A stretch of 64,000 nt of DNA from a virus, in IMG/VR virus record IMGVR_UViG_3300021407_000013, positions 1-64,000 of that record. The stretch is one strand, 5' to 3'. Each line of letters starts with the position of its first letter. The stretch's first letter is position 1. The position numbers were made by a program, and so were the translations under genes. The notes beneath the pieces were generated by a model that was not told the origin of the DNA, did not search any database, and saw only the letters and a list, made by a program, of their open reading frames with translations. Shown piece by piece: positions 2,694 to 43,531 of this stretch.

Positions 2694-3178
2694 GGATTAA
2701 CCTCGAAATAACCATTTCTATAAATCATAGTAGATTGAAAATATCCTTTTGTCAAACTTATATAATATTCAATTACTCCCAAAACAGAAGCTGGACCTGG
2801 GTCTGTAGCCATTGGATAAAATATATAATCTTTACTCAATATATAAAGAAAACCACTACCATTATATTGTGATGGAACACAATTAATCACATTCGCCTGT
2901 ATAACTCTTCCAATTCTCATGTAATATTGTATATCAACTTCTGCTAAAACTCTCTGATTAAACTCATCATATTCTAAAGATATAATTTGAAAAGGCTTCA
3001 TATTTCCTACTAACGGAACCATAAAAATTAAATTACCAGATATATCCTTGCAATTGACATAATAGCGTTGTGCGGATATATTCCAATAAATAGTCACATT
3101 ATATAATGCTCCATCAAATGTAGGCATAAATGATTGTGCTTGCCTATTATTTGGAAGAAATTGAAAATAAGTAGTCAT
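2690..3178 (-). CDS. Putative baseplate protein
   Basis: 162 aa, YNVTIYWN..AQRYY motif typical of small myovirus baseplate proteins; synteny. Confidence 0.45.
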   Translation of the reverse strand: MTTYFQFLPNNRQAQSFMPTFDGALYNVTIYWNISAQRYYVNCKDISGNLIFMVPLVGNMKPFQIISLEYDEFNQRVLAEVDIQYYMRIGRVIQANVINCVPSQYNGSGFLYILSKDYIFYPMATDPGPASVLGVIEYYISLTKGYFQSTMIYRNGYFEVNP

Positions 3179-5114: not shown

Positions 5115-8100
5115 TAACCAAAATTGCCTTGTGAAGAGCCAATCATAGCAGTTTGTGTAGCTACATCAGCACCTGCCGGATTGTGAACATTCACTCTAAT
5201 TGCTTGATTATTATGATATTGAGACATATCACCAATATGCGGATGTGGTCCTGTTCGTGATGCAGTTCTTGTTGAACTAGCTCTAGCTGCATCACGTTGT
5301 GTCAAAGGATTGTTTTCGCCGCCAAGGTGTCCACCGCCTGCTACATCAATTGCAGAGTAGTTAGCGGCATCAAGTTCTCCTCTACCACCACCTATCATAT
5401 ATTGATGTTGATTATGTATTCCACGACTATTTTTCCATTGATCTGCAACATTCATACCAATAATTTTACCATTCCTATCCTTAATATAACTTTCAAAGAC
5501 AGCAGCATGATCTTGACCAATACCTGCTCTACCACCAGTACCTCCTGCATAAATGTCCTGGTTTTGTTCTCCATGCAAACCAGCAAATGTAGCAATGGGA
5601 GTTCCTTTAACTAAACCACCTTCTGTTGCTGATTCTCCTTTTCGCCAACTGCTAGTCCAAGCACCTTTTTGTCCACTACCTAATTTGATTCCAACAGAAG
5701 CTGTAGCTAATGAAACACACTGTTCGTTGGTAATCAAACCTTTATTACGAGCAGACTTCAAATGATCTAAAACATCGTCACTGTCTTTAATACCAAAATT
5801 TGCCTCTGGTGCGCCACCAGTTCCTCCAGCACTGGAAGATCCACCACCGCCTCCAGGATTGAATCCTTTTAAATAACCTAGTCGTTGGCTTGTAGCTTGC
5901 GCCACATTACCAGGTCTTTCAAAATCAGAAACAAGAGTACCTGTCATAGATTCAGCACTTCCTCCACCAGAAAGTGCTTGCCAAGTTTTCGGATAAAAAT
6001 TCTTTTGTTCCCAAATCATAGCCTTTGTTTGTTCTGCCACAGTCATATCCTGTGGCATCTTACCAAATTGCTTCATAATACGTGCAGAGCGCGCATCATC
6101 CCAAGATGCAATACCGTGTGCCATTTGGTTAGGATTAGAGCGGCTAGGATCATGATGAACGTCGGCAGGATTTCTTAACGATTCACCAGATGTATTGGCA
6201 ACTAATGCGCGTGCTGCTGTTGGGCTTAATCCTTCTGCAATGGCAGCATTATACATTTCTTGTTGATTTTTTGCCAATGCTCCTTTGGCTATATTGGTAA
6301 CTCCACTTACAACTCCGCCAGTACGACTTACTTCTTTTGGTTGACCAGCTTCATCTAATCCTCCGGAATGATAAACTCCTGCTCCGCCACCAGTGCCGAA
6401 ACCGCCGCCGCCACCTATATTGACGCCATCACCTGCACCACCACCTGCTCCTGCGCCTCCGCCACCGCCGCTAGTGCCGTCACCTTGTCCAAATTTATTA
6501 GCTAAATATTTACCAGAACCTCCTACAAGTATTTGAGAACCTTGCAAAAGCTGTTTATTGAATTCAGCTAAACTCCTAGATGTATCAGTAACATCTTTAT
6601 TCAATTTTCCGATTTTTGGACTAAATATACTAACTCTACTTACACCACCAGTAACACCACCGCCTCCTTCATCTACAACACCGCTGCCATAAATCTCGCT
6701 CTCTAATGGAGGATTGTTCTTTGGAGAACGCAATGTGCGAGCGCCTGGGCTAGCCCTTGTAGAACCAGATGAACGCGCTTTTGGATTAGCTGTAGGACCA
6801 GGCACTGCTGGAGAGCCACCTAAAATAGGGCCACCCCAACCCCAATTGTCTGAATTAAATATACCACCAGGCTTAAGTCCTGGCGCAGCTTCTGGTCCTT
6901 CATTAATCTTATTCATTTGATTTTTAATAAAGTTATCAATAGCAGGAGCAATATCTGCCAATTTATTAATAAAATGAGTTTGTATCTCAGAACTTGCTAG
7001 ATTAAGTGTGGTGCTAAGATTTGTCAACGCTTTCTGTTGTTCTTGAGTAGTTTCTAAATATTTGGCATTTGCTTCAACAGCTTCTGCCGCTTGCCTAGTT
7101 TCATCACCAGACATTCCTACCAATCGAGTAGCTTGTCCAATACCTCCTGGCAAAATTGAACCCAGGTGTTGCGCCTCAAATAAATTACCCATAGATTGTG
7201 GATTATAACCTTTTAATTTCTTTTGCGCTCTTATCATCAACTGTGCGTACATAGTTGATGGATCCATATTCTTAATTTCTTCTGGGGAAAATCCCATAAA
7301 AGTATATGCAGAGAATTCATCTCCAATCATACTTTTGGCCCTATTTGCGGCCTCTAATCCAGGCTGCACAGGGCCAAATCTTGCAAGCTCGACTTGAGCA
7401 GATTTCATTCTGCCAATATCACCACCAATTCCTGTTGCTTGAAGTCTCTGTTGCGCCCCAGTATTTGCTCCTTCAGCAACAGCGTAACCAATCGCGGCGG
7501 CAGTTCCGCCAATTCCAAGCATCTTAAGAAGATTGCCACTAAACATATTTCTCAATATGTTCTGGCTCATTCTACCAGTAGAAAACATCTGGTAGAAGGA
7601 TTCATTCCATTTATCGTTGCCCTTAGCAAATTTTTCAAAAGTAGCTTTAAACTGTCCAGAACCTGTACGGTCGTTTCCTGGACCCCAAGGTAGTCTGTCT
7701 AAATCAGATAGAGCACCTGGCTTAGGAGCTTTTGCCCATCCTCCTGTAAATTGTCCAGAACCTGTATTACTGCGCCCAGGTCCCCAACGCAATCTGTCCA
7801 TATCAGACAGAGAACCTGAAGCAGGAGGCTTTTCCCAACCTGCACTAAATTGACTGCCTGTTCCAGTTTCACTAGGCTGCGACCAAGTTGGGCGCTTGGT
7901 AAACGTACCTTGAGCGTTTCTGTATCGCTTACCTTCTGGGAATATATCCTCTTCTTGAGCTTGTTTTCTTCGCTCTCTTCTGGATTTAGAACCTTCGTTG
8001 GCTAATCTGTTTAAGTCTCTCTGTGCGCCACTGGCTTGTTTTGTAATATCAACATTAGCTCTTAGTAGCGTATTGGATTCAGCAAGAATGGAACGATACT

Positions 8101-35668: not shown

Positions 35669-36670
35669 TTATGCATATCTCTCCCACATCTCAGCAAAGT
35701 CTTCTTTAAAATACCATCTTGCTAATTTTCCTTCGTGTCTTTGAACTCTATTCTCGATCTCAAAATCTCTGAGTATTCGAGCAAGTTTGCCTGTTGACAA
35801 TTTATAGTCTGACCAATTTACATCGCTAAAATCTGAATTTATCAAAAACTCTACTAATTGATTATTGGTAATTGCGTCTTTCTTGCTATTGGTGAATATC
35901 TCTTGAACATCAGATAGCAACGACTCTCTGACATCTGGAATAACTCTTTCTTTATAGAAATCAGCCATTGCCTCATATGCAGTCTTCGCACGATCTACGG
36001 CATGGCCTATCGCAATGAGTGGGCGCCACTTGTCTGCGTAGCGCCCTATAATTTGTGGAGGCATTAATGGATTTGGATTGAGATTTACACCTTCTGCCCA
36101 TCGCGCAACCTCTGCGTGATAAAAAGCCTCTCTTGGATTAAATATCTCCATTTGTTTATTTGAGCGATGCATTTTAACCATTATGGATCTACTCATAAGC
36201 GATACTGGTAAATGGCCTATACTTGCAAGAGCGAGTGGGCCATATACAGGAGTTAATATGACTTCTTTACCTATTTTCCTGGGTACACTTCCTCCAATTT
36301 CGTGTCCTGCATTTAGAATGGCTTTCATACTTCTTACTATGGACATATTATCTACTTCATCAATTAGCAATGTATGACTATTAGCTAGAGCAAATGCAGT
36401 AGCTGGAGTTGGATCTATTACTTTCTCTGGGCGCCACACAATTGAGTTTAAAATATTGAGTACAGAACTTTTACCGCAGTTTGGTAATGGGCTGAAAATT
36501 AGCAGTCTAGGTGATTTATCATATCTTCTATGTATGTGGGTATGTAGCGCCCAGAGACCTAGACCTACAATATGATGTGGTTTTGCGTCTATACATCTGG
36601 CAAAAGCACCGCATACTTGGTCAAGAATGTTAGTATCAGCGTGCAATTTGGTTGATGATAACGTGGGCAT
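35669..36670 (-). CDS. DUF3631-like P-loop replication protein
   Basis: PRL.I.SP.PNCGKS, TLLIDEVD, ILNAGH, R.AD.WRPLIAI, LARILRDF.I. Confidence 0.75.
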   Translation of the reverse strand: MPTLSSTKLHADTNILDQVCGAFARCIDAKPHHIVGLGLWALHTHIHRRYDKSPRLLIFSPLPNCGKSSVLNILNSIVWRPEKVIDPTPATAFALANSHTLLIDEVDNMSIVRSMKAILNAGHEIGGSVPRKIGKEVILTPVYGPLALASIGHLPVSLMSRSIMVKMHRSNKQMEIFNPREAFYHAEVARWAEGVNLNPNPLMPPQIIGRYADKWRPLIAIGHAVDRAKTAYEAMADFYKERVIPDVRESLLSDVQEIFTNSKKDAITNNQLVEFLINSDFSDVNWSDYKLSTGKLARILRDFEIENRVQRHEGKLARWYFKEDFAEMWERYA

Positions 36671-36688
36671 TAGCCTTCTCCTTGTCGA

Positions 36689-36709
36689 AAAAAGTGTACA
36701 AGTGTAACA
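36689..36709. repeat. 21-bp inverted repeat, right copy
   Basis: AAAAAGTGTACAAGTGTAACA. Confidence 0.85.
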
Positions 36710-36725
36710 TTCATCTTTCTTCTCC

Positions 36726-36959
36726 TCAATTCATTCGTTTCTGCATGTATAATGAAGCTTCTTCCTTGGTTAAATCTTGCGCTACTATTCCAACCAAAGG
36801 TTTATTTTCTTCAGCTATATCTTTTGCAAGAACTTCAATTGCTTTTTCTCCCATATGCATATTGAAATGCAAGCCTTCTTCAATTTCTCCTTCTCTCATA
36901 CCTGTAAATACAGGTGTACCATTATATCGTAGTACCTCGTAAATAAACCATTTGGACAT
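36726..36959 (-). CDS. Hypothetical protein downstream of hammerhead HH6
   Basis: SD AGGAGA. Confidence 0.6.
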   Translation of the reverse strand: MSKWFIYEVLRYNGTPVFTGMREGEIEEGLHFNMHMGEKAIEVLAKDIAEENKPLVGIVAQDLTKEEASLYMQKRMN

Positions 36960-36974
36960 TTTTCTCTCCTAGTT

Positions 36975-37045
36975 GATCTCGTCAGGTAGTGTATTACACT
37001 ACTATTATCAGCTCATAATTATAGCGTAAGCTGATAATTTCGATC
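36975..37045 (-). ncRNA. Type II hammerhead ribozyme HH6 (AUA; predicted cut between 37003 and 37002)
   Basis: GAUC-GAAA-UUAUCAGCU..AGCUGAUAA-UA/GUAGUG-UAAUA-CACUAC-CUGACGA-GAUC. Confidence 0.9.
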
Positions 37046-37049
37046 TCAG

Positions 37050-37155
37050 GAAACGACGCAACCATTTTGGTAGTTACTTAACCGCATGGCATTCTTCTAA
37101 TACCAGGTTTGTGTCGCTTTTCGTCGAAATGACTGCGCCCGAGTTTTCTCTCGGG
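37050..37155 (-). ncRNA. Conserved structured leader RNA, copy A (unknown class)
   Basis: Homologous to 37805..37957 with covarying stems. Confidence 0.7.
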
Positions 37156-37176
37156 TGAAATTCCTGCTTACAACCT

Positions 37177-37205
37177 ATAGTAGCACATTTTCGTTGCCAA
37201 AGCAA
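37177..37205 (-). promoter_or_regulatory. Phage early promoter (leftward)
   Basis: TTGCTT-N13-GTGC-TACTAT. Confidence 0.7.
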
Positions 37206-37279
37206 GTCTTTTTTATTATTGAATGAGATGATACGTTGAAACCCTTGCAGCACTGGGTGGCGCTGCAAGGGGATTATGG

Positions 37280-37573
37280 TTAGTTGGTCATACCCGGCTG
37301 TTCGCGCCGTTCCATATTGTAGTATGCCTTGAGAGAGCTATATGGAGACCTGTTAAGTTCCTTGATCAAATAACGATCCGAGGCGTCTTGACTTTCTAGC
37401 ATCATGCGCTCGCCTCTGGCAGATTGCTCTTCTCTGATAAGCTCGATCTTTCTATGAAAACGTGATGCAATGCGCTCCCGAGCTTGAGCAATCTCGTCTA
37501 TTCTATAGTTGATGTCGTTGACTTTATCGTAATTTTCTGTCTTGACCATATCTAACTCCTTCTGTATGGGCAC
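37280..37573 (-). CDS. Hypothetical protein
   Basis: Downstream of promoter 37589..37617; probable start at internal ATG with SD AGGAG. Confidence 0.55.
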   Translation of the reverse strand: MPIQKELDMVKTENYDKVNDINYRIDEIAQARERIASRFHRKIELIREEQSARGERMMLESQDASDRYLIKELNRSPYSSLKAYYNMERREQPGMTN

Positions 37574-37588
37574 TCGCCCTTACCTGCT

Positions 37589-37617
37589 ACCCTAGCACTT
37601 TTTCCGAAAGAAAGCAA
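37589..37617 (-). promoter_or_regulatory. Phage promoter (leftward)
   Basis: TTGCTT-N13-GTGC-TAGGGT. Confidence 0.65.
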
Positions 37618-37768
37618 GCATTTTCTTTTTATCAAAATCACCATTCCTCATTCATTGGCTGAATAATGGCTGATGAAATCATTTCATTCAACATTTGAAG
37701 CTTCATGGGTCAGTGATAATCATGGTATTTTCCCCTTTTGTTCCCTTAAAGTTCTGCTTTTGTTCCCC

Positions 37769-37797
37769 TTGCTTTCTTTTCCGGGACGTGCTACGGT
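37769..37797 (+). promoter_or_regulatory. Phage early promoter (rightward)
   Basis: TTGCTT-N13-GTGC-TACGGT. Confidence 0.7.
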
Positions 37798-37804
37798 TTT
37801 CTTT

Positions 37805-37957
37805 CCGCGGAGGAAACCGCGGCGCAGCCTGAGACTTGGCGAAAAGCGAAACAAACCCGGCAAGATGACTCGCCGAGCGGTTAAGTAAGTGGTTAGGCAG
37901 TCTCTCCCCAAAGGGCAATAAGCACCAGGGAGAAAAACCGGCCATTTGCGTCGTTTC
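37805..37957 (+). ncRNA. Conserved structured leader RNA, copy B (unknown class)
   Basis: Shares CGCAG, CGAAAAGCGA.ACAAACC, GCGGTTAAGTAA, TTGCGTCGTTTC with copy A. Confidence 0.7.
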
Positions 37958-38052
37958 GGCGGACGGAAATATCCGCCTGAGATAACAACACAGAGCACAG
38001 CGCCCTGAGAAGGGTGCTGTGTTCGCTGGAGTTATTTCTAGCAAGGAAAAGT

Positions 38053-38436
38053 ATGATGTCTAGTAAAAAACGCGCATTGATAAGGCATATGAAGGCAAAT
38101 CCGTTAGATAGTGTGAGATCTGCACATAAAAATATGGACATTACTCCGAAGCGGATGACATATCGAATTGATCCGAATAAAGAATTGAAGGAACGGGACG
38201 AAAAACCGCTTGAAGAAGTAAAGATTAATCAGAATTACGATATTTGGAGAGTAGACGTAAAAATATTAAAAAGATCTGGTAAGAAAGTTATAAAATATGT
38301 GAAGAATAATCCGCCTGGAAAGCGGTATTATCCTCTATCTGAGTCTAAAATAGCGAAAGGTGATCAGATAGAAGGCAAAACGGTGACAGGAACTACGTTT
38401 GCTGATTACAACAACAAGCGTAAAAGTGAGGAGTAA
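38053..38436 (+). CDS. Basic hypothetical protein
   Basis: SD AAGGA; start re-assigned. Confidence 0.55.
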   Translation: MMSSKKRALIRHMKANPLDSVRSAHKNMDITPKRMTYRIDPNKELKERDEKPLEEVKINQNYDIWRVDVKILKRSGKKVIKYVKNNPPGKRYYPLSESKIAKGDQIEGKTVTGTTFADYNNKRKSEE

Positions 38437-38621: not shown

Positions 38622-38937
38622 CCAGGAAGTACATGACAACCTCATTGCTCTCGGATACACGTATCTATTCAGATACAAGAATAGATACGATGAGTATAAC
38701 CATCCTATTAACGACGACTGGATTAGCATAGACAAAGTTGGGCGTGTAGATTTCCCAGATATATGCTCCTATATTGATACTCCAAAGCATAAAGCTAAAA
38801 TCCAGAGGGATATGACACCTGCTATGGCATTAAGAATAGCAGTTAATATGAAGAAAATATTTGAACAAAAGAATTTGCCATACCAATTAGATATAGATGG
38901 TCATAAAATAAAATTAGGAATAATGACTCAACATTAG
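38605..38937 (+). CDS. Hypothetical protein (N-terminus resembles 47887..48096)
   Basis: SD AGGAG; stop TAG overlaps HH1. Confidence 0.6.
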   Translation: MTKMFNQEVHDNLIALGYTYLFRYKNRYDEYNHPINDDWISIDKVGRVDFPDICSYIDTPKHKAKIQRDMTPAMALRIAVNMKKIFEQKNLPYQLDIDGHKIKLGIMTQH

Positions 38938-39000
38938 ACCGAAACTGGTGCGCCATATAGGGCGTTCCAGTCCTAGCGTGAGGCGCTAGCTGACGAGGTC
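38937..39000 (+). ncRNA. Type II hammerhead ribozyme HH1 (GUC; cut after 38972)
   Basis: GACC-GAAA-CUGG..CCAG-UC/CUAGCG-UGAGG-CGCUAG-CUGACGA-GGUC. Confidence 0.95.
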
Positions 39001-39019
39001 AGTAACAGGAGAAAGTACA

Positions 39020-39241
39020 ATGGCACGGGTAATTGTTCAGGTTAAGCTTGCAGACATCAATGGAAACGAATACACGGAAGGTGAGTTGCTTCGTGAATTT
39101 ACAGTAGTAACCAAAGGTCGCGGTGCAATAAATATACAGTCGATGGCATCAATTATACAAGGTACAATCGAAGCTTATGAGGACAAATTTAGGGTTGAAA
39201 ATACCAAAACATATTCAGTAACAAATCGCCGAACTGGTTAA
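39020..39241 (+). CDS. Hypothetical protein between HH1 and HH2
   Basis: SD AGGAGA. Confidence 0.65.
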   Translation: MARVIVQVKLADINGNEYTEGELLREFTVVTKGRGAINIQSMASIIQGTIEAYEDKFRVENTKTYSVTNRRTG

Positions 39242-39244
39242 CCA

Positions 39245-39303
39245 GGCCGAAACTGGCAGGTGCGATCTGCCAGTCCTAGCGTAAATCGCTAGCTGACGAG
39301 GTC
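39245..39303 (+). ncRNA. Type II hammerhead ribozyme HH2 (GUC; cut after 39275)
   Basis: GGCC-GAAA-CUGGCAG..CUGCCAG-UC/CUAGCG-UAAAU-CGCUAG-CUGACGA-GGUC. Confidence 0.95.
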
Positions 39304-39322
39304 AGTAACCAGGAGAACTAAA

Positions 39323-39610
39323 ATGGCACAGATAGAAGATGAGCAATTACTCGCGATGTATTCGCGGGATTTTACCACTGATAAGTCCTATGGACAGCTC
39401 AGTGTTGTCTCCATACTCACAGAGAGTGTGGAGCAACTAACAGATCTCATACCAGAGATCGCTACGCTCCCAGTTGAGCGTAAGGCACAGATTGAAGAGC
39501 AGATTGTGCTCTTCACTCTTTCGCTCTACCACGAAGGTAGATTGCGCGGTGAAGCTGCGGAGCGTTCCACACAAGAGGCTGATTCTGATCGCCTCTCAAA
39601 TTACGAGTGA
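39323..39610 (+). CDS. Hypothetical protein
   Basis: SD AGGAGA right after HH2. Confidence 0.6.
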   Translation: MAQIEDEQLLAMYSRDFTTDKSYGQLSVVSILTESVEQLTDLIPEIATLPVERKAQIEEQIVLFTLSLYHEGRLRGEAAERSTQEADSDRLSNYE

Positions 39611-39618
39611 GGTAGCAA

Positions 39619-39858
39619 ATGACAACCATTACAATCGAACTAGAGATAGTTCAGGCCCAAGAACTTGCCGCAGTAGCACGTGGCAAAGCTAAGGGCATCG
39701 ACTGGGTTCTGGAGAATAAACCTCCAATTCCCAAGAAGGCGTTAGAGCTTGATGAGCGAGCTAAGGTGCTCATACAAGCAGCCACTACCATTGAGACAGC
39801 GCTCCATGCAAGGGCGCTCTCCAATGTCGTTCCGTTGGGAGGTAAAAATGCCGGCTGA
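39619..39858 (+). CDS. Hypothetical protein
   Basis: SD GAGG. Confidence 0.55.
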   Translation: MTTITIELEIVQAQELAAVARGKAKGIDWVLENKPPIPKKALELDERAKVLIQAATTIETALHARALSNVVPLGGKNAG

Positions 39859-40144
39859 TCCCTGGATCGTATGCCCAGTCTGCGATGGCGAAGGCAAGAC
39901 TGTCAATCCGAACATTGATTCGAACGGATTGACCAGAGAAGACTTCGATGAAGACCCAGACTTCAGAGAAGATTATATGAGCGGCGTATATGATATTACG
40001 TGCGCTGCTTGCTCTGGGAAGCGTGTTGTGAAAGCAGCACGTATCGAGGAGCTTCAACAAAATGCTGAAGATCGACGCCTCGCCGCTCGTGAGAACGGTG
40101 ATTATGAATCATACTGCGGTGCAGGCGACTGGAGGTATGGGTAA
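39848..40144 (+). CDS. Zn-finger hypothetical protein
   Basis: CPVCDGEG...GVYD..CxxCxG; SD GGAGG. Confidence 0.6.
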   Translation: MPADPWIVCPVCDGEGKTVNPNIDSNGLTREDFDEDPDFREDYMSGVYDITCAACSGKRVVKAARIEELQQNAEDRRLAARENGDYESYCGAGDWRYG

Positions 40145-40383
40145 TGGACAAGCAAATAGAAAATCGCGCCAAGTACCCATACATCTGCGCTTGGGGTATG
40201 CGACTTGGTTCTTTTCAATATTATATCGACGGAGAAATTAAAAGAGCCATCGAGGACGGCGCTCCTGAGCGTGCCATTTACAAGAGCGGTTCAGGAGAGT
40301 GGCGCACCATTGATGATTGTGCGAACCCCAATGCTAAAGAAGAATGTGAGGCGTGGGTAGCTAAAAAATACCCTGGCAAATAG
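40144..40383 (+). CDS. Hypothetical protein
   Basis: Coupled; stop TAG overlaps HH3. Confidence 0.6.
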   Translation: MDKQIENRAKYPYICAWGMRLGSFQYYIDGEIKRAIEDGAPERAIYKSGSGEWRTIDDCANPNAKEECEAWVAKKYPGK

Positions 40384-40439
40384 ATCGAAACTGGCAGTGC
40401 GATTGCCAGTCGCGTTGTAATGCAACGCCTGACGAGGTC
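40383..40439 (+). ncRNA. Type II hammerhead ribozyme HH3 (GUC; cut after 40411)
   Basis: GAUC-GAAA-CUGGCAG..UUGCCAG-UC/GCGUUG-UAAUG-CAACGC-CUGACGA-GGUC. Confidence 0.95.
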
Positions 40440-40464
40440 AGTTACCCAAACCAGGACTACGAAA

Positions 40465-40677
40465 ATGGCTATCCAAAATACAACATTATATGAGGATAAC
40501 TATGGCTTCTACTGTGTAGAGGAGCCAGATGAAGAAGCCTTCTACGTCCACATCGTAAAGCAGAGTGTGGCGAAGAAGTGCTCGCGTTGCCAAAAGAAGG
40601 TGCGCTTGTTGAAGCATATCAAAATGTGCGCTTCGTGTTCTAATGCCATCGAGTTTGGCGCATCGGAGTCAATATAA
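40465..40677 (+). CDS. Zn-finger hypothetical protein
   Basis: SD AGGA after HH3; CSRC...CASC. Confidence 0.6.
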   Translation: MAIQNTTLYEDNYGFYCVEEPDEEAFYVHIVKQSVAKKCSRCQKKVRLLKHIKMCASCSNAIEFGASESI

Positions 40678-40961
40678 TGTCAAACGAAATTTTAGAAGCT
40701 GTGCCAGACACAGAAGCCAAGCCGCGTATGGTTAAGATACAGGTGTGGTGTTGGAAGACCTATACCAAAAAATACAAAGATGAAGTTGTTAGCTTCATGT
40801 CAGAAGAATACAGCGCTGATGCTTACAAGTCGGAAGGTGACATTATAAATCATCATCTTACAAACGGCCACTACCAATTGCATCGTATTGATTGCTTCTA
40901 CACTTTAATACATGAAGGTGGTTCTACTGATATACTGCAATGGAGGTTCGAGCAGTCATGA
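40677..40961 (+). CDS. Hypothetical protein
   Basis: Coupled ORF. Confidence 0.55.
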   Translation: MSNEILEAVPDTEAKPRMVKIQVWCWKTYTKKYKDEVVSFMSEEYSADAYKSEGDIINHHLTNGHYQLHRIDCFYTLIHEGGSTDILQWRFEQS

Positions 40962-41260
40962 AAGAAGGTAATCACATCATTACCATTGAAGAGCTATTTT
41001 TATTATCTGTCATGCTTCGACAGTTCCAAGAAAAAGTAGAAGCAATTGACAAAGACAAAACAATTTCATCTTTCGTTGCCTTGTTTCCATTGGAGCAAGA
41101 CAAGTCAGAAGATCCACATGAAATTGCTAAAGTTTCTCTCCAGAATTTATTGGAGGGATTCGAGAAAACCGAGCGTCAAATTCGCGATACAAACTACCAG
41201 TTGTTCAAAGTTAGAACATTTCTGGAAGCCCTAAAGGATGGCGCCTCAGATTGGAAATAG
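40958..41260 (+). CDS. Hypothetical protein
   Basis: ATGA coupling; stop TAG overlaps HH4. Confidence 0.55.
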   Translation: MKEGNHIITIEELFLLSVMLRQFQEKVEAIDKDKTISSFVALFPLEQDKSEDPHEIAKVSLQNLLEGFEKTERQIRDTNYQLFKVRTFLEALKDGASDWK

Positions 41261-41326
41261 ATCGAAACTATGGGGCGCACCAAAAGCGTTCCATAGTCGC
41301 GGCGTTACTCGCCGCCTGACGAGATC
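41260..41326 (+). ncRNA. Type II hammerhead ribozyme HH4 (GUC; cut after 41298)
   Basis: GAUC-GAAA-CUAUGGGGCGC..GCGUUCCAUAG-UC/GCGGCG-UUACU-CGCCGC-CUGACGA-GAUC. Confidence 0.95.
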
Positions 41327-41345
41327 AGAAAAAGGAGTAGGTAGC

Positions 41346-41555
41346 ATGACGAAAGTAGATCCAAAATCTGCCTTTGAAGGGGACACCATTACTCCCATCG
41401 AAAAGCCCAAAACAAGGCAACAGAAAATTGTTGAGTATAGAGCAGCTCACGAAGCTGAGTATCGTAAGGCGTGCCACGAAGAGCAATGCACCTGCACACC
41501 AACGCGGGCGCAAATGCTCATTATGGAGAATTACAACCATCCACCGATCGACTAA
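41346..41555 (+). CDS. Hypothetical protein
   Basis: SD AAGGAG after HH4; start re-assigned. Confidence 0.6.
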   Translation: MTKVDPKSAFEGDTITPIEKPKTRQQKIVEYRAAHEAEYRKACHEEQCTCTPTRAQMLIMENYNHPPID

Positions 41556-41573
41556 GAAAATTTATTGAACTTA

Positions 41574-41597
41574 GTGGGGCTTCGGCCCCATTCTTTT
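41574..41597 (+). terminator. Intrinsic terminator
   Basis: GTGGGGC-TTCG-GCCCCAT then TCTTTT. Confidence 0.75.
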
Positions 41598-41631
41598 AGG
41601 TCATTTAAGGCCACTAACCAGGAGAGTAAAA

Positions 41632-41928
41632 ATGGAAATCCACGACAATCTTCACTATACTGATTCTACATACGGAAACCCAGAACGTAAATGGCAGATG
41701 CGTTCTGATCACATTCTCAAGCTGTTCGATCTACCACCGAATGGTCCAATTCCTCCTGATCATTTCGATTCTAGGGTTATTGGCAATGTGCAGGTTATGA
41801 TCGTTCCGCGCGGTTATTTCAAAATCAAGCGTCGTGTGGTCGCGTATTGCCCCAAGTGCAAGAAAATTGTGTGCGCTGGTCATTTAATGCAGCACATGAA
41901 GGTCCACAAGAAGGACCAGGAGATTTAA
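41632..41928 (+). CDS. C2H2-type Zn-finger protein
   Basis: CPKC.K......L.QHMKVH. Confidence 0.6.
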   Translation: MEIHDNLHYTDSTYGNPERKWQMRSDHILKLFDLPPNGPIPPDHFDSRVIGNVQVMIVPRGYFKIKRRVVAYCPKCKKIVCAGHLMQHMKVHKKDQEI

Positions 41929-41929
41929 G

Positions 41930-42073
41930 ATGACTCAATTAGATTTTCATTCCGCCTGTATTTTGGTCCTCGGTCTTGGAGGCTTCGCCAATACCGTTGC
42001 CAATTATCTGCTATCAAAACGAGTCCGCTATTTGGAGCATAAACGCAAGGTTATGTTCTGGGAAAGGGAGTAA
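41930..42073 (+). CDS. 47-aa membrane protein (not in ORF track)
   Basis: SD AGGAG; hydrophobic ACILVLGLGGFANTVANYLL. Confidence 0.45.
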   Translation: MTQLDFHSACILVLGLGGFANTVANYLLSKRVRYLEHKRKVMFWERE

Positions 42074-42301
42074 ATGACCGAACAGGAAGAAGCATTTGAT
42101 CTATGGAAATCCAGAGTAGACGTTTATCTGGAGCAGATGGTTAAAAAGCTAAGTGGAGATTTTCGTTACGATTTTTTGAAAGACTTCAACGATAAGGTTC
42201 CACCTAGCGTAACAGCAACCAGAGTTGTTAAAAGTCAATACAAAGGAGCTAGAAATGGCAGAGTACGAAGTCAAATCAAACGGGAAGAAGCTCCTCGATG
42301 A
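42074..42301 (+). CDS. Hypothetical protein
   Basis: Coupled ORF. Confidence 0.5.
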   Translation: MTEQEEAFDLWKSRVDVYLEQMVKKLSGDFRYDFLKDFNDKVPPSVTATRVVKSQYKGARNGRVRSQIKREEAPR

Positions 42302-42485
42302 GTATCGAGGAGACCGCGTTTTTGGAGATTGTTATGTCATTCTTAAGGATGGAAAGGAATCGTATGAAGTCGTCCTTTCTACCATAGTTGACAGTTGCAA
42401 TTGCCCAGGATTTACACATCACGGGCATTGTAAGCATATTGATATGACTTACGAGAAAGCATTTGTTTCTGAAGTAGATCAATAG
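42255..42485 (+). CDS. SWIM Zn-finger protein
   Basis: CNCPGF...CKHI; stop TAG overlaps HH5. Confidence 0.65.
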   Translation: MAEYEVKSNGKKLLDEYRGDRVFGDCYVILKDGKESYEVVLSTIVDSCNCPGFTHHGHCKHIDMTYEKAFVSEVDQ

Positions 42486-42549
42486 ACCGAAACTTGGTGC
42501 GCCACAAAGGCGTTCCAAGTCGTGCTGTTAGGCAGCACCTGACGAGGTC
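42485..42549 (+). ncRNA. Type II hammerhead ribozyme HH5 (GUC; cut after 42521)
   Basis: GACC-GAAA-CUUGG..CCAAG-UC/GUGCUG-UUAGG-CAGCAC-CUGACGA-GGUC. Confidence 0.95.
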
Positions 42550-43362: not shown

Positions 43363-43531
43363 GGCGCGGTAACAGCGCCAGCCGCCAAAGACTAGCCATC
43401 CACAGCCCCCCGTTCGGATGGCATTTTTATCAATTTAGCGAACCCTCTGGTCATTTAGAATCGCCCCCCGGTTCCTATGGGCCAGAGGTAGACTTGCCGC
43501 TCCACTCCCCACAAGAGTGGAGCGGCCCTTT
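43363..43531 (+). ncRNA. Candidate sRNA of tandem hairpins with C-rich loops ending in a terminator
   Basis: GCCATCC/GGATGGC, CCTCTGGTC/GGCCAGAGG, GCCGCTCCACTC/GAGTGGAGCGGC stems. Confidence 0.5.

Follow-up and report, generated by a model that had tools for sequence, protein, structure and literature searches.

Two copies of a structured leader RNA behind divergent early promoters of an uncultured phage

The uncultured phage of IMG/VR record IMGVR_UViG_3300021407_000013 (75 kb, estimated completeness 94%) carries, in a control region at about 37.0–38.0 kb, two copies of a structured leader RNA, which we call A and B and which lie just behind two divergent early promoters. The window analysed here is the stretch of 64,000 nt formed by positions 1–64,000 of that record. 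Judged from its sequence, the leader RNA is a real, new and nearly orphan structured leader in a position like that of put and nut, and it is the 5′ extremity of both predicted divergent early transcripts. An earlier note on this DNA had described a two-copy structured RNA behind divergent early promoters, and all of the sequence features that it listed were recovered where it had placed them.

Position, covariation and fold of the two leader copies

Promoters of the form TTGCTT-N13-GTGCTA, a sigma-70-type -35 with an extended -10, occur five times in the window (0.58 expected). Two of them stand ahead of the leader copies, as had been claimed, and both copies begin 0–15 nt past the predicted start of their outward promoter (Table 1). 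The three others are followed by short leaders without the RNA, and one of these drives a single gene ending at a terminator. TGA/TCA is frequent in the spacer between the back-to-back promoters (37618–37768), where an imperfect direct repeat, TTC(C/T)(C/G)CTTTTGTTCCC, also lies at 37730–37745 and 37752–37767.

Each copy starts with P1, a 5′-terminal 6-bp hairpin with a 6-nt purine loop, which abuts CGCA and has different arms in the two cases (CCCGAG/CUCGGG in A, CCGCGG/CCGCGG in B). The common blocks CGCAG, GAAAAGCGA.ACAAACC, GCGGTTAAGTAA and TTGCGTCGTTTC are all present, as is a variable hairpin (UGGUAUU/AAUGCCA in A, CGGC/GCCG in B), and the extra domain noticed earlier in copy B corresponds to a 45-nt insertion. 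CGCAG, GAAAAGCGA.ACAAACC, GCGGUUAAGUAA and UUGCGUCGUUUC are identical in A and B, and each of the long blocks occurs in the window only at these two places; for GAAAAGCGA.ACAAACC the two matches compare with 0.03 expected. About 46 invariant bases, in five blocks, are common to both copies.

Standard pairing is kept in both copies at 29 of 29 pairs (58 of 58 cells), and seven of these pairs have changed on both sides, three in P1, one in P2 and three in the inner part of P3. When the 3′ partners were slid by 1–3 columns as a control, 31–40% of positions paired, with at most one double change. The pairing of P4 is also kept with other sequence (CUA/UGG versus GUGGUU/GGCCAU). Stop codons in every reading frame rule out a coding repeat, and the closed frames together with the lengths of the A/B indels (3, 1 and 45 nt) indicate that the leader is not coding. 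It is neither a coding repeat nor a plain DNA inverted repeat; to judge from the compensatory changes, A and B are paralogous copies of one structured non-coding RNA under purifying selection.

The minimum-energy fold of both sense strands consists of the 5′ hairpin and a three-way junction; the antisense strands fold otherwise. The closing helices are AAGCGA/UCGUUU for the junction itself, AACC/GGUU for P3 and GUAA/UUGC for P4. P2 is a 3-bp mini hairpin, and the A-rich strand GAAAAGCGA.ACAAACC, UAAGUAA and the 3′ strand UUGCGUCGUUUC are further invariant parts. RNAalifold, applied to both copies, prefers CGCA:UGCG over GUAA:UUGC, and forcing CGCA:UGCG in a nested model costs about 5 kcal/mol in A and about 4 kcal/mol in B. 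The pseudoknot proposed earlier (CGCAG:UUGCG with AAGCGA:UCGUUU) is sterically conceivable, but the minimum-energy fold is the nested junction, in which UUGC is used differently. Since the pairs of the pseudoknot are all invariant, the two copies neither support nor oppose this central pairing. The sure copies number two, plus one candidate (L095, below), and the central helices do not vary between A and B. In these models the invariant strands would either form the core of the junction or take part in a long-range CGCA:UGCG helix with a pseudoknot.

Several other properties and resemblances were considered and set aside. The strand asymmetry of folding energy was not decisive, the antisense strand of B being more stable but of another architecture. 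Kissing of the P1 loops with the 3′ tails was inconsistent between A and B. A likeness to the TPP riboswitch was confined to P3 of copy A, did not extend to copy B and had no counterpart among Rfam matches, and GGA, as in a CsrA site, occurs only in the P1 loop of copy B. The GGUUAAGU of the leader is presumably also found in 16S rRNA; mimicry of rRNA was rejected, because chance alone would give a match of that length and the blocks come in another order.

Occurrence of the leader RNA and a candidate distant homologue

In agreement with the earlier note, no Rfam family matches the leader. Searches with Rfam 15 gave no match to it at the gathering score over the whole window, and at E<=10 over 36800–38200 only four sub-threshold matches at chance level, all to unrelated eukaryotic families. 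A covariance model built from copies A and B (R1) recovers both copies and nothing else in the genome. It found no match in the two syntenic relatives described below (G001 and G002), in phages with related capsids (Pantoea PdC23, Yersinia vB_YenM_29.18, Klebsiella Chronis and Shewanella QDWS), in HK578 or, at E<=10, in HK022. BLAST of the 1.2-kb region gave no match in 50,697 phage records.

Large collections of viral, metagenome and genome contigs were scanned by exact sequence patterns. Among viral contigs, the exact blocks yielded nothing or chance matches in coding DNA (checked by reading and with R1), L095 excepted. The metagenome scan gave a single chance-like match (L007). Bacterial genome contigs gave no match for one pattern and 38 chance matches for another, which were used as controls.

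Searching with the DUF3631 protein and the primase encoded near the leaders retrieved only G001 and G002 as relatives, neither of which has a copy of the leader. Their DUF3631 proteins are 50% and their primases 62% identical to those of this phage, and gene order is kept in both. G001 also has the promoter motif, type II hammerheads and the long hairpin ahead of the first rightward gene, without the leader. On these grounds the leader is a swappable accessory module. In L002, which holds the control region of a relative, a different stretch of about 550 nt stands in place of leader B, and many TTTGACA repeats are found on both strands at 5300–5880.

The candidate homologue, L095, comes from a viral contig of 57 kb and 65% GC, where it sits in about 700 nt without genes, flanked by divergent genes. 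In order, it has a hairpin of 6 bp directly against CGCAG, a mini hairpin (GGG/CCC) corresponding to P2, an exact copy of the 16-mer CGAAAAGCGAAACAAA and a hairpin of 7 bp; P1, P2 and P3 are kept with new sequences, and the UAAGUAA and UCGUUUC blocks are missing. By itself the pattern match is within chance expectation. Among the 38 chance matches that the same pattern gave in bacterial genomes, one has 6 bp or more in a hairpin next to CGCAG, one has 7 bp or more in a hairpin past the block, and none combines the two; we estimate the joint chance probability of the L095 features at about 1e-3. L095 is probably a homologue of the 5′ half of the leader. Its CGCAGGG can pair with a downstream CCCUGCG.

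No neighbouring protein is common to L095 and this phage, and L095 had no DNA match among phage records. Its helicase, compared with viral contigs, gave one 32%-identical relative, L136, which has no A-rich block. Three phages with helicases similar to the one of L095 (a Pbunavirus, Xanthomonas phage Carpasina and Luteibacter phage Pluto) likewise lack the block. The gene-free region of L095 also contains repeated GCCCTGGCG motifs (2640–2990), possibly iterons or operators.

Genes, ribozymes and hairpins around the leaders

The capsid protein of the phage is 55–60% identical to capsids of Pantoea, Yersinia and Klebsiella phages, and because of this likeness the host is probably a gammaproteobacterium. 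No close cultured relative was found for the replication proteins. Genes run outwards from the control region in both directions. On the left these are a 77-aa gene, the DUF3631 gene and, past two plus-strand genes, the primase gene; on the right, small genes form a long array. The first start codons are about 90 nt past the leaders, behind a ribozyme on the side of A and behind a long hairpin on that of B. For the 77-aa protein a single relative was found (96% identical), encoded on an ENA contig of 1.2 kb. The first rightward gene (38053–38436, plus strand) encodes a basic 127-aa protein with a weak atlas lead (0.83–0.84) to small HTH/Mor-type DNA-binding proteins; its counterpart by position in L002 has a short RIDP/VIDPEN stretch in common with it and no BLAST match. 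None of the small proteins beside the leaders could be assigned to a family, and none belongs to a recognisable RNA-binding family.

Table 1. Positions of the leader copies, their parts and other elements in the window
Feature	Coordinates	Strand	Remarks
Leader RNA, copy A	37050..37155	-	106 nt; R1 131.6 bits
A: P1	37155-37138	-	
A: CGCAG	37137-37133	-	
A: P2	37133-37123	-	
A: A-rich block	37122-37106	-	
A: P3	37109-37080	-	
A: GGUUAAGUAA	37083-37074	-	
A: P4	37078-37056	-	
A: UUGCGUCGUUUC	37061-37050	-	
Leader RNA, copy B	37805..37957	+	153 nt; R1 197.5 bits
B: P1	37805-37822	+	
B: CGCAG	37823-37827	+	
B: P2	37827-37840	+	
B: A-rich block	37841-37857	+	
B: P3	37854-37882	+	
B: GGUUAAGUAA	37879-37888	+	
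B: P4 and 45-nt inserted hairpin domain	37889-37945	+	
B: UUGCGUCGUUUC	37946-37957	+	
Promoter P_A	37177..37205	-	TTGCTT-N13-GTGCTA 37205-37181; -35 TTGCTT 37205-37200; extended -10 TGC-TACTAT 37182-37177; predicted start ~37170-37168
Promoter P_B	37769..37797	+	TTGCTT-N13-GTGCTA 37769-37793; -35 TTGCTT 37769-37774; -10 TACGGT 37792-37797; predicted start ~37804, first bases of P1
Third promoter of the class	37593..37617	-	drives 89-aa gene 37549-37280; short leader without the RNA
Terminator-like hairpin	37271-37242	-	behind 89-aa gene of third promoter
Type II hammerhead (HH6)	36975..37045	-	GAUC, GAAA, stem III hairpin, stem I hairpin, CUGACGA, GAUC; core 37041-36979
Short hairpin	37958..37977	+	GGCGGA/UCCGCC; directly 3′ of copy B; no U tract behind
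Long interrupted hairpin	37981..38040	+	between copy B and first rightward gene
Terminator-like hairpin	41573..41592	+	8 bp, tail CUUUUAGG; inside rightward array
Terminator-like hairpin	43496..43526	+	12 bp, 9 G-C pairs, tail CCUUUUAGG; inside rightward array

Copy A ends 4 nt (CUGA) ahead of the GAUC-GAAA start of a type II hammerhead, as had been noticed earlier, and about 47 nt from its cut site, which is predicted after A37003, between the stem III and stem I hairpins. Cleavage would separate copy A, together with the 5′ portion of the ribozyme, from the message that encodes the 77-aa protein, as an RNA of about 170 nt. A core-motif search gave six well-formed type II hammerheads in the same early operons, one at 36975–37045 (minus strand) and the others within 38937–42549 (plus strand). 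The Rfam window scan at gathering score reported 0 of these 6, and the E<=10 scan (36800–38200) likewise did not report the hammerhead beside copy A. Type II hammerhead ribozymes are known to occur in phage operons (Perreault et al. 2011, PMC3088659).

The 3′ boundary of copy B lies just ahead of the long interrupted hairpin. This hairpin is kept in the relative G001 (L002 5104–5161, minus strand) with four compensatory pairs, while the leaders upstream of it are wholly different. It is a plausible candidate for an RNase III-type, double-strand-specific processing site, a role that we infer.

Four terminators had been quoted for the rightward unit. Those at about 41.6 and 43.5 kb look intrinsic; the other two, at about 42.7 and 47.2 kb, do not. 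Past both of the terminator-like hairpins in the array, genes go on along the same strand with no promoter of the class behind them. The two hairpins have the same tail, C(C)UUUUAGG. On the antisense strands of the leaders, P3 and the A-rich block read as a hairpin followed by a U-rich tract (37878–37855, minus strand, and 37087–37122, plus strand), as they do in L095 at about 2880–2932 (minus strand); these antisense hairpins could also stop transcription entering the control region.

Possible roles of the leader RNA and comparison with known systems

Our first choice, held tentatively and by analogy, is that the leader acts co-transcriptionally on RNA polymerase in the manner of put; we favour it over a released trans-acting RNA. 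Put RNA binds the zinc-binding domain of beta′ and suppresses termination without protein factors. The leader would be a promoter-proximal module acting, during its synthesis, on its own polymerase, like HK022 putL/putR or a nut-type site. Early transcription would be made resistant to pausing and termination, for example at the hairpins at 41.6 and 43.5 kb, and the leader would then be severed from the message, by the hammerhead for A or at the conserved long hairpin for B. If copy A is cut from its message, it cannot control that message in cis post-transcriptionally, and only co-transcriptional action or action in trans remains. Put is the closest functional precedent: HK022 has two similar copies of it, behind PL and PR, with putL beginning at about +3 of the transcript, and put RNAs act without protein factors and independently of a transcript tether (PMC9378689). 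A ribozyme behind the leader is therefore compatible with a put-like mechanism. The leader occupies the position of HK022 put and lambda nut behind divergent early promoters, as the earlier note had pointed out. The reading as a strand-specific, uncatalogued structured RNA in two copies is supported as well; for the riboswitch and ribozyme alternatives of that note there is no positive evidence, neither an expression platform nor a match to a known ribozyme model being seen. Put-like action is also supported by the fact that closely related phages carry different modules here, as lambda and HK022 do, and by the contrast between the single-gene, terminated class promoter without a leader and the rightward array with its terminator-like hairpins.

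A number of observations weigh against put-like action. The leader is not homologous to put, R1 finding nothing in HK022 (a one-way test, R1 against HK022). No boxA (YGCUCUUUAA-like, at most two mismatches) occurs in 36234–38345, and so none in either leader. The phage NusG paralog that had been invoked was not found, a search of the 75-kb record with the NGN family PF02357 giving no match; nor was an N-type partner found among the neighbouring small proteins, although N proteins are too short and divergent to be excluded in this way. The leftward unit behind copy A has no recognisable intrinsic terminator down to 32.2 kb. Two long operons start from class promoters at 52.6 and 53.7 kb without the RNA, and relatives with hammerhead-punctuated operons manage without it, which makes it an accessory element. 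Finally, with two sure copies only, the central helices show no variation by which to judge them.

It is also possible, though we rank it second, that the leader is an early non-coding RNA released to act in trans, where it would serve as decoy or sponge for a conserved host factor or a defence component, or regulate it. It would then be the first product of both strong early promoters, freed by the hammerhead (A) or by cleavage of the long hairpin (B). The presence of a processing element behind both copies is in line with such a role, as is the accessory nature of the leader, which is missing from syntenic relatives. The 5′-terminal hairpin and compact fold would favour stability, and two copies would simply raise the dose. 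The lack of a common neighbour protein in L095 agrees with a host-encoded partner, or with none at all, but the homology of L095 is uncertain. Moreover, no target could be identified, cleavage at the hairpin past copy B is something we infer, and a trans-acting RNA would not require exact placement at the start of both outward transcripts.

An operator for a phage RNA-binding protein, or a 5′ stabiliser, is unlikely. Such an element could shield the 5′ end or enable a phage protein to shut off both early operons post-transcriptionally. The transcript of copy B opens with a hairpin, the single-stranded blocks are strictly conserved in the manner of a site bound by protein, and if RNA and protein were exchanged as a pair, this would account for relatives without the leader. 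However, the hammerhead separates A from its message, so that stability and translation of the message would be independent of the leader after the cut, and the neighbouring small proteins, as noted above, include no recognisable RNA-binding family.

We consider about equally unlikely a conformational switch, that is a riboswitch or factor sensor in which a ligand or protein chooses whether the invariant UUGC(G) pairs with GUAA or with CGCA(G). The two pairings are mutually exclusive and both use invariant bases, RNAalifold and single-sequence folds differ, the junction with invariant strands and variable outer helices is aptamer-like, and L095 offers the CGCAGGG/CCCUGCG pairing mentioned above. 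Against this, no terminator or ribosome-binding-site-sequestering helix that could serve as an expression platform overlaps the 3′ strand, the start codons are about 90 nt off, behind the ribozyme or long hairpin, and no riboswitch family matched at E<=10.

Two further readings are very improbable. Pistol, hatchet and twister-sister were found next to hammerheads, and the leader, which sits within an array of type II hammerheads and has a conserved junction core with variable helices, might be taken for a new self-cleaving ribozyme class; but there is no Rfam 15 ribozyme match at E<=10 (in the scan that also missed the neighbouring hammerhead), copy A already has a hammerhead 4 nt behind it, the sequence suggests no site of cleavage and the family is extremely rare. 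An element acting at the DNA or antisense level, either inverted single-strand initiation signals of a replication origin situated between the copies or a terminator pair guarding the control region, would account for the inversion of the copies around a 650-bp control region beside replication genes (DUF3631, primase) and for the listing of 37878–37855 (minus strand) in a terminator scan, where antisense P3 and the A-rich block give a hairpin and a U-rich tract, but it is just as improbable. The shared architecture exists on the sense strands only and includes G-U pairs, which the opposite strand would turn into A-C mismatches. Moreover, each copy runs in the direction of its promoter and begins there, and a terminator needs no P1, P2, P4 or 46 invariant bases.

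That the leader represents a new class of promoter-proximal functional RNA moving between unrelated phages, one of enterobacterial type and the other the 65%-GC L095, seems to us rather improbable. Within such a class, it could be a second, structurally unrelated, self-sufficient polymerase-reprogramming RNA or a ribozyme-released immediate-early decoy directed against a conserved host factor or a defence system. To our knowledge, put is the only factor-independent antiterminator RNA family that has been examined closely, and its known members all come from HK022-type lambdoid phages. If the leader acts like put, phages would have reached factor-independent RNA antitermination more than once, and the leader would be a new, compact tool for work on bacterial RNA polymerase; if it acts in trans, it would exemplify an immediate-early phage RNA that is released by a ribozyme. 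The near-orphan status of the family limits the certainty and the immediate value of the finding, and both roles remain proposals.

Among known systems, type II hammerheads are neighbours of the leader, which itself lacks their core and was not matched by any ribozyme model. Lambda nut shares with it the place behind PL and PR, and P1 is, like boxB, a short G+C-rich hairpin with a purine-rich loop. Unlike nut, the leader has no boxA, its loop has 6 nt and is not a GNRA-like pentaloop, it is far larger, and no N-like or NusG-like protein was identified here. Lambda also has an RNase III site between nutL and N, which is comparable to the long hairpin past copy B.

The comparison with HK022 put shows differences in size and architecture, put having about 70 nt and two stem-loops whereas the leader has 106–153 nt, four helices and a junction; the leftward unit here, moreover, has no visible terminator to overcome. 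In both systems, two similar, covarying copies stand behind divergent early promoters, near the start of the transcript (here 0–15 nt), the RNA is made by host sigma-70 polymerase (predicted here from the promoter class), and the module is exchanged between related phages.

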